A stretch of 64,000 nt of DNA, taken from contig CAWIKF010000002.1 of assembly GCA_963836755.1 (NCBI GenBank), forward strand, positions 928,001-992,000, written 5' to 3'. Below, piece by piece: positions 24,833 through 40,992 of the stretch. Both the position numbers and the translations under genes were made by a program. Source of the stretch: an uncultured Verrucomicrobiae bacterium (GTDB lineage Bacteria > Verrucomicrobiota > Verrucomicrobiia > Chthoniobacterales > Chthoniobacteraceae). Under the pieces are notes generated by a model, which worked only from the letters and a program-made list of their open reading frames with translations, did no database searches and was not told where the DNA came from. How positions within the stretch are numbered: the first letter of the stretch is position 1; every line of letters begins with the position of its first letter.

Positions 24833-27010
24833 ATGGCGAACGCGACTTTAGACAAACCTGCCGTGTCCACGAATCCGAATTCGCCAAACCGCGCGTATCC
24901 GCTGGAGCGCACGCGTAACATCGGCATCGCAGCGCACATCGACGCGGGCAAGACGACGTTGACCGAGCGCATTCTTTTTTACACCGGCATGATTCACAAA
25001 ATCGGCGAGGTGCACGAAGGCACGACGGTCACCGATTGGATGGAGCAGGAGCGCGAACGCGGCATCACGATCACCTCGGCTGCGACCACTTGCGCGTGGA
25101 TGCAGAAAAAGGAAGAGGGCGTTTACAAAGTTTTTGACGGCATCAAAATGCGCGTGAACATCATCGACACGCCGGGCCACGTCGATTTTACGGCGGAGGT
25201 CGAGCGTTCACTGCGCGTGCTCGACGGTGCCATCGCGGTTTTTGATGCAGTCGCTGGCGTGCAGCCGCAATCGGAGACGGTCTGGCGGCAGGCAAACAAA
25301 TACGGCGTCCCGCGCGTCGCCTTTATCAATAAGATGGATCGCGTTGGCGCTGATTTCGCAGCGGCCATCGATTCGATGCGCAAAAAGCTCAATGCGAATG
25401 CCTGGCCTGTTTTGATTCCGCTCGGTGCTGAAGACAATCTTCGCGGGCAGCTGGACGTCATTAATAAAAAGGCGATCATTTATTCCGACAACGACGTAAT
25501 GGGCTCGACTTACACGGTCGAAGAGATTCCGGCCGAGCACAAAGCGATGGTCGATGGAGCTTACGAAGATCTCGTCAGCGCGATCAGCGATCTCGACGAC
25601 GAAGTCGGCACCGCTTTTCTCGAGGAAAAACCGATCACGCGCGAGTTGCTCAAGGCTGGTATTCGGCGTCAAACTACCGCGAACCGATTCGTCCCAGTGA
25701 TCGGCGGATCTGCTTTTAAAAACAAAGGCGTTCAATACCTCGTCGACGCCGTCATCGATTATCTGCCGAGCCCGATCGACATTCTGCCGACGAAGGGGAT
25801 GGAGCCGGACACGCGCGAGCCGATGGAGGCGCGGACTGATGACAACGGGAAATTTTGTTCGCTCGCGTTCAAACTTTGGAGCGATCCGTTTGTCGGCAAG
25901 CTCGTATTTTTCCGTGTCTATTCCGGCACGTTGTCAAAGGGGGACACGGTTTACAATCCGCGCACGAACAAGCGCGAGCGCATCTCGCGGTTGATCCAAA
26001 TCCAAGCCGACAAGCGCGAAGACATCGACACGTGTTACTCCGGCGACATCGCGGCGATCGTCGGCATCAAAAATATCACTACTGGCGACACGCTCTGCGA
26101 CGAAGATTTCCCCATCCTACTCGAGCCGCCGTCATTTCCCGATCCGGTTATTTCCATGGCGATCGAGCCGAAGACAAAGCTTGACCAGGAAAAAATGTCG
26201 ATCGCGTTGCAGCGGCTCGCGGAAGAAGATCCGACGTTCCGCGTTTTCACGAATGAAGACACGGGCCAGACGATCATCGCCGGCATGGGCGAATTACATT
26301 TGGAAATCATCCGCGACCGGATGTTCCGTGAATTTAAAGTTGAGGCAAACGCGGGCAAACCGCAGATCGCGTATCGCGAAACGATCACCGCTCCGGCGAT
26401 GGGCGAAGGCAAGCTGATCAAGCAATCCGGCGGTCGCGGTCAATATGGCCACGTCATCGTCAACGTCCGCCCGGCGGAGCGCGGCAAAGGTTTAACGATC
26501 GAAAACAAAGTTGTCGGCGGCAATATTCCGAAAGAATACATCGCGCCTTGTAAAAAAGGCATCGAGGAAGCTGTGCTCAACGGCGTCGTCGGCGGCTATC
26601 CCGTCATCGATCTCGAAGTCGACATCATCGACGGCAGCTATCACGACGTCGATTCGAACGAGCTCGCATTCAAACTCGCGGCGATTTTTGCGATGAAGGA
26701 TGGCTTTAAAAAAGCGAAGCCGATCTTGCTCGAGCCGATCATGAAGGTCGAGAACATCACGCCGGACGAGTATCAAGGCGACATCATGGGCGATCTCAAT
26801 CGTCGCCGTGGCCGCATCATGAGCCTCGAAACCAAGGGTGGATTGACGACCGTGCAAGCCGAAGTTCCGCTTGCGGAAATGTTTGGTTACTCGACCGCGA
26901 TCCGCTCGCTGTCGAAAGGGCGCTCGTCGTATTCGATGGAGCCGTCGCACTTCGAGCAAGTCCCGGCGCAAGTGCTGGCCGCAGTGCTCGACCAAAAAGG
27001 CAAAGAGTAA
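24833..27010 (+). CDS. fusA: Elongation factor G
   Basis: [32 protein letters not shown]. Confidence 0.99.
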
Positions 27011-27028
27011 TTTTACGCACGAATTTTT

Positions 27029-27340
27029 ATGACCAACGGCCAACGCATTCGCATCCGACTAAAAGCATTCGATTTCCGCATGCTCGACGCATCGTCGGCG
27101 GAAATTGTCGAGACGGCGAAGCGCACCGGCGCGAAAGTCGCAGGGCCGATTCCGCTGCCGACGCGCATCGAGAAATTCACGGTGAACCGTTCTCCGCACG
27201 TCGACAAAAAGTCGATGGATCAATTTGAAATTCGCACGCACAAGCGCCTGCTCGACATCATCGAGCCGACCGCAAAAACGGTGGACGAATTAAAGAAACT
27301 CAACTTGCCGGCGGGCGTGGATATTACGATCAAAATTTAA
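27029..27340 (+). CDS. rpsJ: 30S ribosomal protein S10
   Basis: [25 protein letters not shown]. Confidence 0.99.
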
Positions 27341-29823: not shown

Positions 29824-30102
29824 ATGGGCAGATCTTTAAAAAAAGGACCTTTCGTCGAGCAGCATTTGCTCGAGAAGATCGACAAAATGGAAGCTGCCGG
29901 CGTGAAGAAGCCGATCAAAACCTGGTCGCGCCGCAGCACCGTAACGCCGGATTTTGTCGGTCATACTTTTTTGGTCCACAACGGCAAAATTTTTCAATCC
30001 GTCTTTGTAACGGAGAACATGGTGGGACACAAACTCGGCGAATTTTCGCCGACGCGCGTCTTTAAGAAACACGGTTCGCACACTGCGAAAGTGACCAAGT
30101 AA
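29824..30102 (+). CDS. rpsS: 30S ribosomal protein S19
   Basis: [24 protein letters not shown]. Confidence 0.99.
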
Positions 30103-30103
30103 A

Positions 30104-30886
30104 ATGAAATTTCCCGCCATGGCGGGTTGGACGTGTTTGACGCTGGCGTTGATGCCGGCGGCGCACGGCGCAGATAGTTCTTTGTCAACTTTGGATATTG
30201 AGTTCTCGGAAGCTAAAATGACGCTTCAGACGATGAATGCCGCCAACGCGGCATTGAGCGAGAAGTTGAAACTTTCGCAGGAGCAGGTGAAATCGTTGAC
30301 GGAAAGTCTGGCGATTTCCAATAGCGAAGCGGAAGTTTTCAAGCGCGAGAGCGGCGAGTTGAAGCTGCGCATGGAGGCCCTCGGGCTGGATGCGGGCGAC
30401 AAGGCGAAGCTCGAGCAGCGGCTGTTGAAAGCCGTGAGCGATCTAAAAATCGTCCAGGACGAAAAAGACAAGCTCGCGGACCAGCTTTTGCGGATGTCGG
30501 AGGCGATGCTGCGGTTTTTGAAAACCGCAGTCAGCACCGACGCGCAGGCGCGGATGGCAGTGGAAACCGAGATGCGCGCGACGAATGAAGCGCTCGGTCT
30601 GCCGAGTGCGCAGGCCGTGGACGCGCAGGCGATTCCGGCGACGCTGACCGATGGAATGGTAATCACCGTAAAAGAAGAATTTGCGCTGGTCGTCGCGAAC
30701 CTTGGCAGCAAGCAGGGCGTGAAAATCGGCATGCCGTTCCAAGTGTGGCGCGGCGACGGTCTCATCGGCCATGTGCGCATCGTCGATGTCCGCGACAAAA
30801 TCGCGGGCGCAGTGATTCAAGATCTCAATTCGAACAAGGACAAGGTGAAAGTAGGCGACCGCCTTCGGGTGGACGCCCAACAGTAA
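30104..30886 (+). CDS. Hypothetical exported coiled-coil protein with a C-terminal beta domain, inserted in the S10 operon
   Basis: 260 aa; fills the rpsS-rplV gap exactly (1 nt and 12 nt spacers); signal peptide, long helical region, beta-rich tail. Confidence 0.85.
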   Translation: MKFPAMAGWTCLTLALMPAAHGADSSLSTLDIEFSEAKMTLQTMNAANAALSEKLKLSQEQVKSLTESLAISNSEAEVFKRESGELKLRMEALGLDAGDKAKLEQRLLKAVSDLKIVQDEKDKLADQLLRMSEAMLRFLKTAVSTDAQARMAVETEMRATNEALGLPSAQAVDAQAIPATLTDGMVITVKEEFALVVANLGSKQGVKIGMPFQVWRGDGLIGHVRIVDVRDKIAGAVIQDLNSNKDKVKVGDRLRVDAQQ

Positions 30887-30898
30887 AATTTTAAAAAC

Positions 30899-31396
30899 AT
30901 GCAAGTGACTTCGACATATAAATACGCGCGCATCTCTGCTTTTAAAGGCCGGGAAGTGACACGCGAAATTCAAGGGCTGCCGGTTTCGGCTGCGCTCGAT
31001 ATCGTCGCGTTCAGCCCGAAAAAGGTGGCCGCGTTTGTCGCGAAAACTTTGAAGAGCGCAATCGCCAACGCGGAAAACAACAACGATCTGCGCGTGGAAA
31101 ACCTCGTCGTCAAAGAAGCGACCATTGGCGAAGGGCCAACGTTCAAGCGCTCGCAGCCAAAGGCGCGCGGCAGCGCCGGACCGATCCGCAAGCGGACCAG
31201 CCACATTCGCATCGTGCTCACCGACGAAATCGAAATCAAAACTCGCGAATCGAGAAAGAAAGCCGCGGGCGCGAAAAAGAGCAAAAAGCCGGCAGCGAAA
31301 AAAACTGCGGCGAAAAAAGAGCATGTTGCTGCTGAAACAAAAGTCGCGGAGAAGCCCGCTGAGACTGACGTCAAAGAAGGCCAAACCGCAGAATAA
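30899..31396 (+). CDS. rplV: 50S ribosomal protein L22 with Lys/Ala-rich C-terminal extension
   Basis: [29 protein letters not shown]. Confidence 0.98.
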
Positions 31397-33784: not shown

Positions 33785-34357
33785 ATGGCAGCAGAACTTT
33801 ACGAATTTTACAAAAAGAGCGTCGTCCCGACGTTGCAGCAGCAGCGCGGCTACAAGAACGTGCACCAAGTGCCGCACGTCGAAAAAGTCGTCGTGAATAC
33901 CTGCATCGCATCCCAGCAGGATGTTAAACAAGCGCTCGAAGATGCAAAAGCGGAGCTGAGCCTGATTACCGGTCAGAAACCGGCGGAGACGCGATCGAAA
34001 AAGAGCATCGCCAACTTCAAGCTGCGCAAGGACCAGCCAATCGGCGCGAAGGTGACGCTGCGCGGCGCGCGGATGTATGAGTTTTTGGAACGGCTGATCA
34101 AAGCCGCACTGCCGCGCATCCGCGATTTTCGCGGAGTTTCGACGCGCGCGTTTGATGGGAACGGGAATTACACGCTCGGCGTTTCGGACCAGTCCATTTT
34201 CCCGGAAGTCGAGCTCGACAAAATCAAGCGCAACATTGGATTTGACGTGACCATTGTGACGAGCGCGAAAAACAACGATGAAGCCAAAGCGTTGTTGATG
34301 GAGCTTGGCATGCCTTTCAGCGACAAGGCGAAAAAACCGACGGCGAAAGCTGCTTAA
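33785..34357 (+). CDS. rplE: 50S ribosomal protein L5
   Basis: ITGQKP, SIANFKLR, LPRIRDFRG, FDGNGNY. Confidence 0.99.
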   Translation: MAAELYEFYKKSVVPTLQQQRGYKNVHQVPHVEKVVVNTCIASQQDVKQALEDAKAELSLITGQKPAETRSKKSIANFKLRKDQPIGAKVTLRGARMYEFLERLIKAALPRIRDFRGVSTRAFDGNGNYTLGVSDQSIFPEVELDKIKRNIGFDVTIVTSAKNNDEAKALLMELGMPFSDKAKKPTAKAA

Positions 34358-34361
34358 TTTT

Positions 34362-34760
34362 ATGAGTCAAATGTCTGATCCCATCGCCGATTTTCTCACG
34401 CGCTTGCGCAACGGCGGCAACGCATTGAAGCCCGAAGTGCTCGCTCCTTACTCGAAAATCAAGGTCGAGATCGCCCGTATTTTAAAACAAGAGGGCTACA
34501 TTTCGGGCTACGAAGTCGATACCGATGACGCGCATCCGCAGATCAAGGTGAAGACGAAGCTCGCGAATCGCGGCTCGGCGATCACTGGGTTGAAACGCGT
34601 GAGCAAACCAGGTCTTCGCCGTTACGTCGGCGCGCAGGAAGTGCCGCGCGTGCTCGGCGGCATGGGCGTCGCGATTCTTTCTACGCCTCGCGGGTTGATG
34701 ACCGGCCGCGAAGCGAAAAAGCAAAATGTCGGCGGCGAGCTGCTCGCTTACGTTTGGTAA
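34362..34760 (+). CDS. rpsH: 30S ribosomal protein S8
   Basis: DPIADFLTR, SKPGLRRY, GGELLAYVW. Confidence 0.98.
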   Translation: MSQMSDPIADFLTRLRNGGNALKPEVLAPYSKIKVEIARILKQEGYISGYEVDTDDAHPQIKVKTKLANRGSAITGLKRVSKPGLRRYVGAQEVPRVLGGMGVAILSTPRGLMTGREAKKQNVGGELLAYVW

Positions 34761-35678: not shown

Positions 35679-36230
35679 ATGGCTGACAATCAACAACGCA
35701 ACCGCGGTCCTCGCAGAGATCGCAACGCCGAAGCCGCCGACAAATCGGGGCTCACGGAGAAAGTCGTTTTCATCAATCGTTGCGCAAAAGTCGTCAAGGG
35801 CGGCCGCCGTTTCAGCTTCAGTGCCTTGATCGTAACGGGCGACAAGGACGGCAAAGTCGGCTGTGGTTTTGGCAAGGCGAATGAAGTCTCTGAGGCGATT
35901 CGCAAGGCTTCGGAATCGGCGAAAAAAGCGATGACGAAAGTCGCGCGCCGCGAGAACACGATTCCGCACGAAGTCATTGGTGAGTTTGGTGGTGGGCGTG
36001 TTTTGTTGAAGCCGGCATCGCCCGGCACCGGCGTCATCGCGGGCGGCGGCGTTCGGGCCGTGGTGGAAGCGGCGGGCATTCGCGACGTGCTCGCGAAATC
36101 GCTCGGCTCGAGCAACCACGCGAACGTAGTCAAGGCGACGATCGCGGCTTTGCTGCAACTGCGTCAGCGCGATGAAATTTACAAACTTCGCGGACAGGCG
36201 ATTCCCGCGAAATTTGTGCAGGAAGTTTAA
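35679..36230 (+). CDS. rpsE: 30S ribosomal protein S5
   Basis: [23 protein letters not shown]. Confidence 0.99.
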
Positions 36231-36232
36231 AT

Positions 36233-36691
36233 ATGAATTTGCACACACTCAAACCGCGCCCCGGCGCGAAGCACCGCACGAAACGGCTCGGCCAAGGCGA
36301 GAGTTCTGGCAAGGGCAAGACCAGCGGCAAAGGCCACAAGGGCCAGAAAGCACGCTCGGGCGGCAGCATTCGCCTCGGTTTTGAAGGTGGTCAGATGCCG
36401 CTTATCCGGCGGTTGCCGAAGCGCGGTTTTAACAACGCGCGATTCAAGAAACATTACGCGATTGTGAACTTGAGCGACCTCAATCGGTTCGATGATGGCG
36501 CGACCATCGACGAATCTTCGCTGCTCGAAGCGAAGCTCATTCGCGGAAAATATGTCGGCGTGAAAATTCTCGGCACCGGTGAGTTGACGAAAAAGTTGAC
36601 GATCTCGGCGGACCAGGTGAGTGCGGGTGCGCGCGAAAAAATCGAGAAAGCCGGCGGCACGATTTCGATCCCTGCAGCAGAGCAGAAGTAA
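36233..36691 (+). CDS. rplO: 50S ribosomal protein L15
   Basis: GKTSGKGHKGQKAR, FEGGQMPL..LPKRGF. Confidence 0.99.
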   Translation: MNLHTLKPRPGAKHRTKRLGQGESSGKGKTSGKGHKGQKARSGGSIRLGFEGGQMPLIRRLPKRGFNNARFKKHYAIVNLSDLNRFDDGATIDESSLLEAKLIRGKYVGVKILGTGELTKKLTISADQVSAGAREKIEKAGGTISIPAAEQK

Positions 36692-40347: not shown

Positions 40348-40992
40348 ATGGCCGACGAAAAAAAACCGAAAGCTCCCAAGGCAAAAAAAGAAGCGACGCC
40401 AGAGGCTGCTGCACCTGCGGACGAAACTCCCCATGCCGCTGCGCCTGCGACGGGTGAAACTCCTCAAGCGGCAGCGCCCGCTGCCGAGGCGCCTGCTGCT
40501 CCGGCTGAGGCGAAACCGGCAAAGGCTCCGAAGAAAACAAAAAAAGAAGCAGCGGCTCCGGCAGCAGAAGCTCCGAAGGAAAATTTCTCGCTCGATCCGA
40601 ATGCCGTTGAGCCGGTCAAAATCATCAAGGCGAAGGGGAGCAAAAACGTCCACACGGGCGTCGCGCATGTGCTCGCCACTTTCAATAACACCATCGTGAC
40701 GATCACTGATCAAAGCGGCGCCGTCATCGGCTGGTCGAGTGCCGGCAAAGTTGGGTTCAAAGGCTCGCGCAAAAGCACCGCTTACGCCGCGCAGATGGTC
40801 GCGCAGGATGCCTGCCGCCAGGCGATGGGTCACGGATTGAAAGAAGTCGAAGTTCGCGTCAAAGGCCCGGGCGCCGGTCGGGAATCCGCAGTCCGCGCGA
40901 TGCAGGCCATCGGGCTCGAAATTACGGTCATTCGTGATGTCACTCCGATTCCGCACAACGGCTGCCGGCCGCCCAAACAGCGTCGCGTCTGA
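40348..40992 (+). CDS. rpsK: 30S ribosomal protein S11 with long N-terminal extension
   Basis: [34 protein letters not shown]. Confidence 0.98.

Follow-up and report, generated by a model that had tools for sequence, protein, structure and literature searches.

The X family is an undescribed variant of the FlgT-C/TsaP type of envelope accessory protein, encoded at an unusual site, between rpsS and rplV in the S10 ribosomal protein operon of many Verrucomicrobiota. The evidence gives about an even chance that X is a non-essential, periplasmic, TsaP-like accessory of the MUL2 machine (Amuc_1102-1101(PilM)-1100-1099-1098(secretin)) that rides on the S10 transcript. The gene was found in a stretch of 64,000 nucleotides, which we call the window, with the following features:

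29824..30102, + strand: rpsS (uS19), upstream neighbour of X, gap 1 nt
30104..30886, + strand: gene X, 260-aa ORF with an ATG start
30104..30169, + strand: predicted cleavable Sec signal peptide, aa 1-22 (AHG/A), from sequence and a family heuristic
30188..30382, + strand: helix 1, aa 29-93, with a coiled-coil register in the AlphaFold model, missing in Opitutales forms
30401..30592, + strand: helices 2 and 3, aa 100-141 and 147-163, in the AlphaFold model, missing in Opitutales forms
30641..30883, + strand: FlgT-C/TsaP-like beta-barrel, aa 180-260, by fold match, the sole domain common to all members read
30899..31396, + strand: rplV (uL22), downstream neighbour of X, gap 12 nt

The original prediction had placed a 260-aa ORF between rpsS and rplV, and both its coordinates and the gaps of 1 and 12 nt agree with the sequence. 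Its description of the ORF as host-like in composition and free of repeats also stands: the GC content of 0.54-0.57 is the same as that of the flanks, the codon adaptation of 0.685 lies within the 0.62-0.76 range of 17 r-protein genes, and the only repeats detected were one inverted pair and three short direct repeats of two copies each, every one of them imperfect. A homologue search and synteny survey, proposed as a check, yielded 3,926 homologues and 936 cluster representatives, with the order rpsS-X-rplV in 30/30 and then 29/29 loci. Since these two sets share four genomes, they amount to 55 different genomes, all with strong hits, and the order holds in every one of the 55 inspected. X is therefore a real gene, neither a chance ORF nor a misassembly, given the number of homologues and the same gene order at all inspected loci. 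Those of its close homologues that are named come from Chthoniobacteraceae, and its orthologue in the gut bacterium Akkermansia muciniphila is Amuc_0299 (B2UMT5, ACD04141.1).

Several further features of the surrounding operon were recorded. One sigma-70-like site lies within X, at chance level (1 vs. 0.5). In the window, uL22 (30899-31396) has a long Lys/Ala-rich tail at its C-terminus and uS11 (40348-40992) a long Ala/Pro/Lys-rich extension at its N-terminus, and rpmD (uL30) is missing between rpsE and rplO (35679-36691). PF00327 (uL30) was absent from all five Verrucomicrobiota genomes tested and detected in 13 of 14 controls; loss of uL30 in Verrucomicrobiota is already known. The ORF list has no tuf between fusA and rpsJ (27010-27029), no rpsN between rplE and rpsH (34357-34380), and no rpoA-rplQ after rpsD (41630 onward); all of these are presumably encoded elsewhere in the genome.

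X also holds its position across much of the phylum. Of 80 genomes picked across Verrucomicrobiota and enriched for apparent X-negatives, rpsS and rplV were both located in 77; a barrel gene stands immediately 5' of rplV in 39 of these, including a degenerate copy in G017, and G117 is a further probable case. In 15 of the 77 genomes a break in the S10 operon separates rpsS from rplV, and X remains with rplV in 11 of the 15. Ten split-operon loci (L089-L098) come from G055, G255, G273, G197, G182, G308, G324, G045, G042, and G258, and in single- or few-contig genomes the two halves lie 37-660 kb apart; the split may be a single old event. On a tree of 75 genomes X changed state at least 12 times. 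It looks ancestral to the phylum, its status as an ancient and native gene there is supported, and it has been lost many times, also from genomes of 4-6 Mb. The G017 copy (L061:369-908) is strongly diverged, with 179 aa and a weak barrel score, and the X match in G006 (L004) contains two stops within its N-terminal part. Among the named homologues, none lies outside Verrucomicrobiota except one protein from a Pyrinomonadaceae-labelled MAG. In an Atlas search with X, the leads in Omnitrophota and Planctomycetota all scored below 0.9, and a contig scan returned nothing beyond the query itself.

Judged from its N-terminus, X is probably an exported envelope protein. The signal peptide originally proposed ends in LALMPAAHG/A, as quoted, and was judged by a hydropathy heuristic. 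By the same heuristic, 113 of 122 Met-starting alignment rows have a hydrophobic N-terminus, 93 of the 122 an AxA-like site and one a lipobox, and a second TM-like stretch occurs in three of the X-family rows. The AlphaFold monomer (pLDDT 84.7) consists of three helices and one beta domain at about residues 180-260. The claim of a heptad-like helix held up, with the best registers of X 79% and 83% hydrophobic at a/d, and the resemblance to a FlgT C-terminal-type fold was confirmed by structure, although the Pfam score is below cut-off. The top fold match of the barrel is the FlgT C-domain (Z 12.0, rmsd 1.8 A over 74 residues), followed by the crown barrels of F1/V1 (Z 10-10.6), HerA (9.5), MreC (8.1-8.6), and TsaP (7.6), in searches that hardly covered the helical part. 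X scores below the cut-off of every Pfam and NCBIfam family: PF16538 (FlgT C-domain) scores 15.8 and 19.1 bits against a cut-off of 27, and PF04085 (MreC) 13.9-17 bits against 28. Weak PF16538 matches occur in 26 of 126 members, one homologue (P0344) carries a precomputed PF16538 label, two others bear the label PF26666, and TsaP is the best, though weak, PDB sequence match of the barrel profile (E 0.13 and 1). As this barrel is common to F1/V1 crowns, HerA, and MreC, the fold does not fix the function of X.

The constant parts of X appear to be the barrel and the predicted export signal, with the helical stalk dispensable, because Opitutales-type forms comprise a signal peptide and barrel alone (108-130 aa) in 14/14 loci read. 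In other forms, stalk lengths lie between 0 and about 250 aa. The periplasm-spanning design first suggested for X is accordingly not upheld as a trait of the family.

Pilus genes were tested for association with X because its barrel is the fold by which TsaP belts the PilQ secretin. [quoted passage not shown] A profile of the Amuc_1101-type PilM matched in 265 of 301 genomes. In a hand tally of 132 genomes of the window's class, 93 have both X and PilM, two have X without PilM, 15 have PilM without X, and 22 have neither, so that X was not found in 22 of 24 PilM-negative genomes; this tally leaves out G012, G013, and G018, in which the S10 region was not located, takes some X calls from profile score alone, and counts a weak match in G319, uninspected, as the paralogue Y (see below). 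Both exceptions with X and no PilM have a particular context: G033 has an Amuc_1098-type secretin at a contig edge, and in G240, 8,000 bases lay outside the sequence searched. G324 has X and the secretin with no PilM match. The dependence runs one way, as those 15 genomes of the class and many in other classes have PilM without X.

The same pattern appears after correction for descent. On the 75-genome tree (rplB, rpsS, rplV, and rpsC), with G033 scored PilM-positive by its secretin and G017 scored X-positive, X was concordant in 8.2 of 9 independent pairs differing in PilM and opposed in none (sign test p 0.008); strict relabelling of both genomes gave 7.6 concordant and none opposed, with the median p unchanged. 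The tree genomes were partly selected for lacking X, and the PilM idea arose from the same 80 genomes. Within family f19 (26 genomes, including Rariglobus), all four X-positive genomes are among the six with MUL2A, and none of the other 20 was scored X-positive. MUL2 was not detected in Methylacidiphilales (PMC13174399), and family f22, which is negative for PilM and X, agrees with this if f22 belongs there, as we infer. Other PilC/GspF proteins are retained in three of four double-negative genomes tested, which links X to the MUL2 cluster and not to type IV systems generally.

Co-loss of this kind could also arise if X did some unrelated work in the envelope and were simply a hitchhiker on the S10 transcript, the PilM link reflecting common gene loss in some lineages. 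Several double-negative lineages are indeed small (0.9-2.5 Mb), just two control families were used for co-loss, and MreC (PF04085), found in 77 of 80 genomes, is too seldom lost to gauge loss rates. Against this, double-negative genomes of 3.6-6.4 Mb exist (G029, G030, G286, and eight of family f19) while some of 1.3-1.9 Mb keep both genes, and the comparison of genome size with X is flat (medians 3.5 vs. 3.8 Mb, p 0.375). Genome size does not account for the loss of X, and we regard the hitchhiking explanation as unlikely.

Tracking of X with the N-terminal TPR region of the secretin was considered and rejected as a rule, the TPR region being kept in X-negative G193, G216, G181, G098, and G023 and in four genomes of other classes; short secretins occur in X-negative G219, G286, G050, G036, G145, and G154. 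Amuc_1098-type secretins with the TPR region shortened or missing were noted in lineages losing PilM or MUL2A (G219:C23, G286:C26, G050:C2, G036:C1, L143, and L198). Two separate matches to the PilM-like protein occur in many f29 genomes and in G266:C24 and G322:C217; in G266 and G322 the matches correspond to the two halves of the protein, read in adjacent frames, and the gene may be split.

Barrel profiles detect only X and its paralogue, Y, in the source genome, and a canonical TsaP was not seen there in this search:

L060:1486-2316 (G000:C1), - strand: Y in the source genome, with further loci at L101-L116, L118, and L121

Y has an N-terminal membrane anchor, a coiled coil of 150-200 aa, and the same barrel as X, and no Pfam family of its own. 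It is surrounded by changing housekeeping genes, with no conserved partner among its neighbours in 13 loci, and forms a tandem pair in Akkermansia and in L116. Intended as a negative control, Y also follows PilM (6.0/9 pairs, p 0.03), more loosely than X does, and follows X as well (6.0/10 pairs concordant, p 0.03). Because Y did not behave as a negative control, a wider envelope module may be co-lost with MUL2.

There is accordingly some chance, if a small one, that X and the membrane-anchored Y form a separate envelope module of barrel-tipped coiled-coil struts, co-lost with MUL2 through a common lifestyle of surface attachment and glycan uptake and making no contact between X and the machine. 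The shared barrel and coiled coil of Y, its association with both PilM and X, and an X level about tenfold below that of the MUL2 subunits would all fit such a module. It is harder to reconcile with the persistence of Y in the absence of X and PilM (G036, G030, and family f22), with G078, which has no secretin-family match, and with the tighter association of X with PilM than with Y; moreover, X and Y were never adjacent in the loci read.

Published expression data for Akkermansia bear on how X is made. In the PMC11480725 data, Amuc_0299 read counts track rplV with a log r of 0.99 over 21 samples, at 2.9x the rplV count for 2.1x the rplV length; Amuc_0299 mRNA does not track that of Amuc_1100, used as a control (r -0.06). 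The same source has the Amuc_0299 protein in 14/14 samples, about 33-fold under five r-proteins by iBAQ (range 21-46; about 3% of the r-protein level) and 7-19-fold under Amuc_1098-1102 (about 10% of the MUL2 subunit level), tracking uS19 (rho 0.90) over PilM (0.45) or MUL2A (0.38), with both mRNA and protein dropping in stationary phase. In a second dataset (PMC6538878), Amuc_0299 mRNA rose 2.0-fold against 7-34-fold for seven flanking r-protein genes. The expectation that X is expressed in step with ribosome synthesis, to be checked by RNA-seq and proteomics against r-proteins, thus holds at the level of mRNA in one dataset, in which X is cotranscribed with the S10 genes, and does not hold in the discordant second dataset or at the level of protein. 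In Akkermansia, by one of two datasets, X shares the S10 transcript but not r-protein output, and at about 1:33 by iBAQ it is not near the one copy per ribosome of a ribosomal protein or ribosome factor. It offers a case of one ribosomal-operon gene with about 30-fold less protein than its neighbours at similar mRNA. Amuc_0299 is absent from the text and one supplement of the outer-membrane proteome paper PMC4960237 and from a LipoP-annotated table of PMC6538878, and does not occur in the supplements of PMC7459334 and PMC9415379.

X had been proposed to link growth rate to envelope biogenesis or division, and co-folding with SecY had been suggested. We consider it highly unlikely that envelope building or division is tied through X to ribosome output or growth rate, or that X acts with SecY near the uL22 exit tunnel. 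The phylum-wide retention of the slot before rplV, including in 11 of 15 split-operon genomes, and the fall of mRNA and protein in stationary phase speak for such a role, but the split may be one ancient event, X is about 33-fold sub-stoichiometric and uncoupled in the PMC6538878 data, and the stalk is optional. A core role in growth or division is also not sustained by the repeated losses of X with PilM, which include 4-6 Mb genomes and point to MUL2. MreC is kept by all X-negative (and PilM-negative) genomes tested, and it was not found in any of three Akkermansia-genus genomes tested (G116, G139, and G222), all of which have X.

Taking X as a TsaP-like accessory of MUL2, its working may be outlined as follows. 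X would be transcribed on the S10 mRNA, as seen in Akkermansia in one of two datasets, and would build up to just about 3% of the r-protein and 10% of the MUL2 subunit level, by the published proteome table. Its predicted signal peptide would direct Sec export and be cleaved, and the barrel could then dock on the machine at some periplasmic component. The simplest site would be the outer face of the secretin, by analogy with TsaP on PilQ; the optional stalk may dimerise X or extend towards inner-membrane PilM/N/O-like parts. This docking step is drawn from fold analogy and co-loss. In growing cells X might aid the assembly or stability of new machines, and it would be lost after the machine decays. 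The S10 position would be an ancestral insertion providing growth-phase transcription, with action on the ribosome unnecessary. Lying 7-19-fold below Amuc_1098-1102, X is too scarce to furnish every secretin with a 7:14 belt of the TsaP kind. A complex prediction of X (aa 100-260) with the secretin (aa 262-862, leaving out its N-terminal TPR part) and MUL2A scored 0.00, which is neutral for either view. A bolder version, which we think quite unlikely, is that the low growth-phase supply of X sets the number of secretin machines built or activated, and that Y, anchored in the inner membrane, is a further part of this apparatus; if true, mucin and fucoidan foraging would be tied directly to ribosome transcription.

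Amuc_1100, the best known of the Akkermansia surface proteins, belongs to the Amuc_1098-1102 machine, which is linked to mucin and fucoidan uptake and whose parts list is incomplete; Amuc_0299 is a named candidate for a missing part, in an organism for which a genetic system exists. The proposal also suggests a possible function for the gene at an old and seldom-seen interruption of the S10 gene order. X had been singled out as the best candidate in the window for an undescribed system. Among the papers searched, none was found naming Amuc_0299, AMUC_RS01705, B2UMT5, or ACD04141, the one match listed for the last two concerning Amuc_0301. X is probably a helper of the MUL2 machine.

A comparison of X with known barrel proteins shows both shared and distinct features. 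In the flagellar basal body of Vibrio, FlgT is a protein of a periplasmic ring (bioRxiv 10.1101/2020.05.29.123786), and its C-terminal domain (PF16538; PDB 3w1e and 8z5n) has the same barrel as X (Z 11.6-12.0, rmsd 1.8-1.9 A over 74-75 residues, 24% identity). X lacks the FlgT N-terminal and middle domains, having no Pfam match there and a model that is helical, with a stalk in their place, and it stays below the PF16538 cut-off. The MreC barrel core (PF04085) resembles X in its N-terminal hydrophobic segment, coiled coil, and related barrel (Z 8.1-8.6), but X has a single barrel rather than two, a signal that is probably cleaved, and no co-occurrence with MreC. Classing X as a flagellar FlgT or as a second MreC would agree with the top fold match and with the weak Pfam and NCBIfam MreC scores, yet both identities are largely refuted and extremely unlikely: FlgH was found in none of five genomes tested (three of them X-positive) and in 3 of 14 controls, and a separate true MreC is encoded elsewhere in the source genome (E 5e-39). 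Compared with the subunits of MUL2 (Amuc_1098-1102), X is co-lost with PilM and MUL2A, but it is unlinked to the cluster, not cotranscribed with it, much rarer, and not among the components listed in PMC13174399.

The closest parallel is TsaP of type IVa pili (PDB 3jc8 and 6ve2), whose FlgT-C-like domains form a belt around PilQ; TsaP is not essential, and its gene lies away from pilQ (bioRxiv 10.1101/2020.05.29.123786). X likewise has a FlgT-C-like barrel (Z 7.6 against the 3jc8 model), is predicted to be exported, is encoded away from the secretin operon, occurs with a PilM/secretin cluster, and is proposed to be an accessory. Unlike TsaP, it has one barrel instead of two in tandem (CI and CII) and no N-terminal LysM (none among the Pfam matches of X or the 25 families seen most often in 126 members), and it adds an optional coiled coil, an abundance about a tenth that of the secretin, and a location in the S10 operon. 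By this analogy, X is most likely TsaP-like in its working mode while, with its single barrel and no LysM, standing outside the TsaP family proper.
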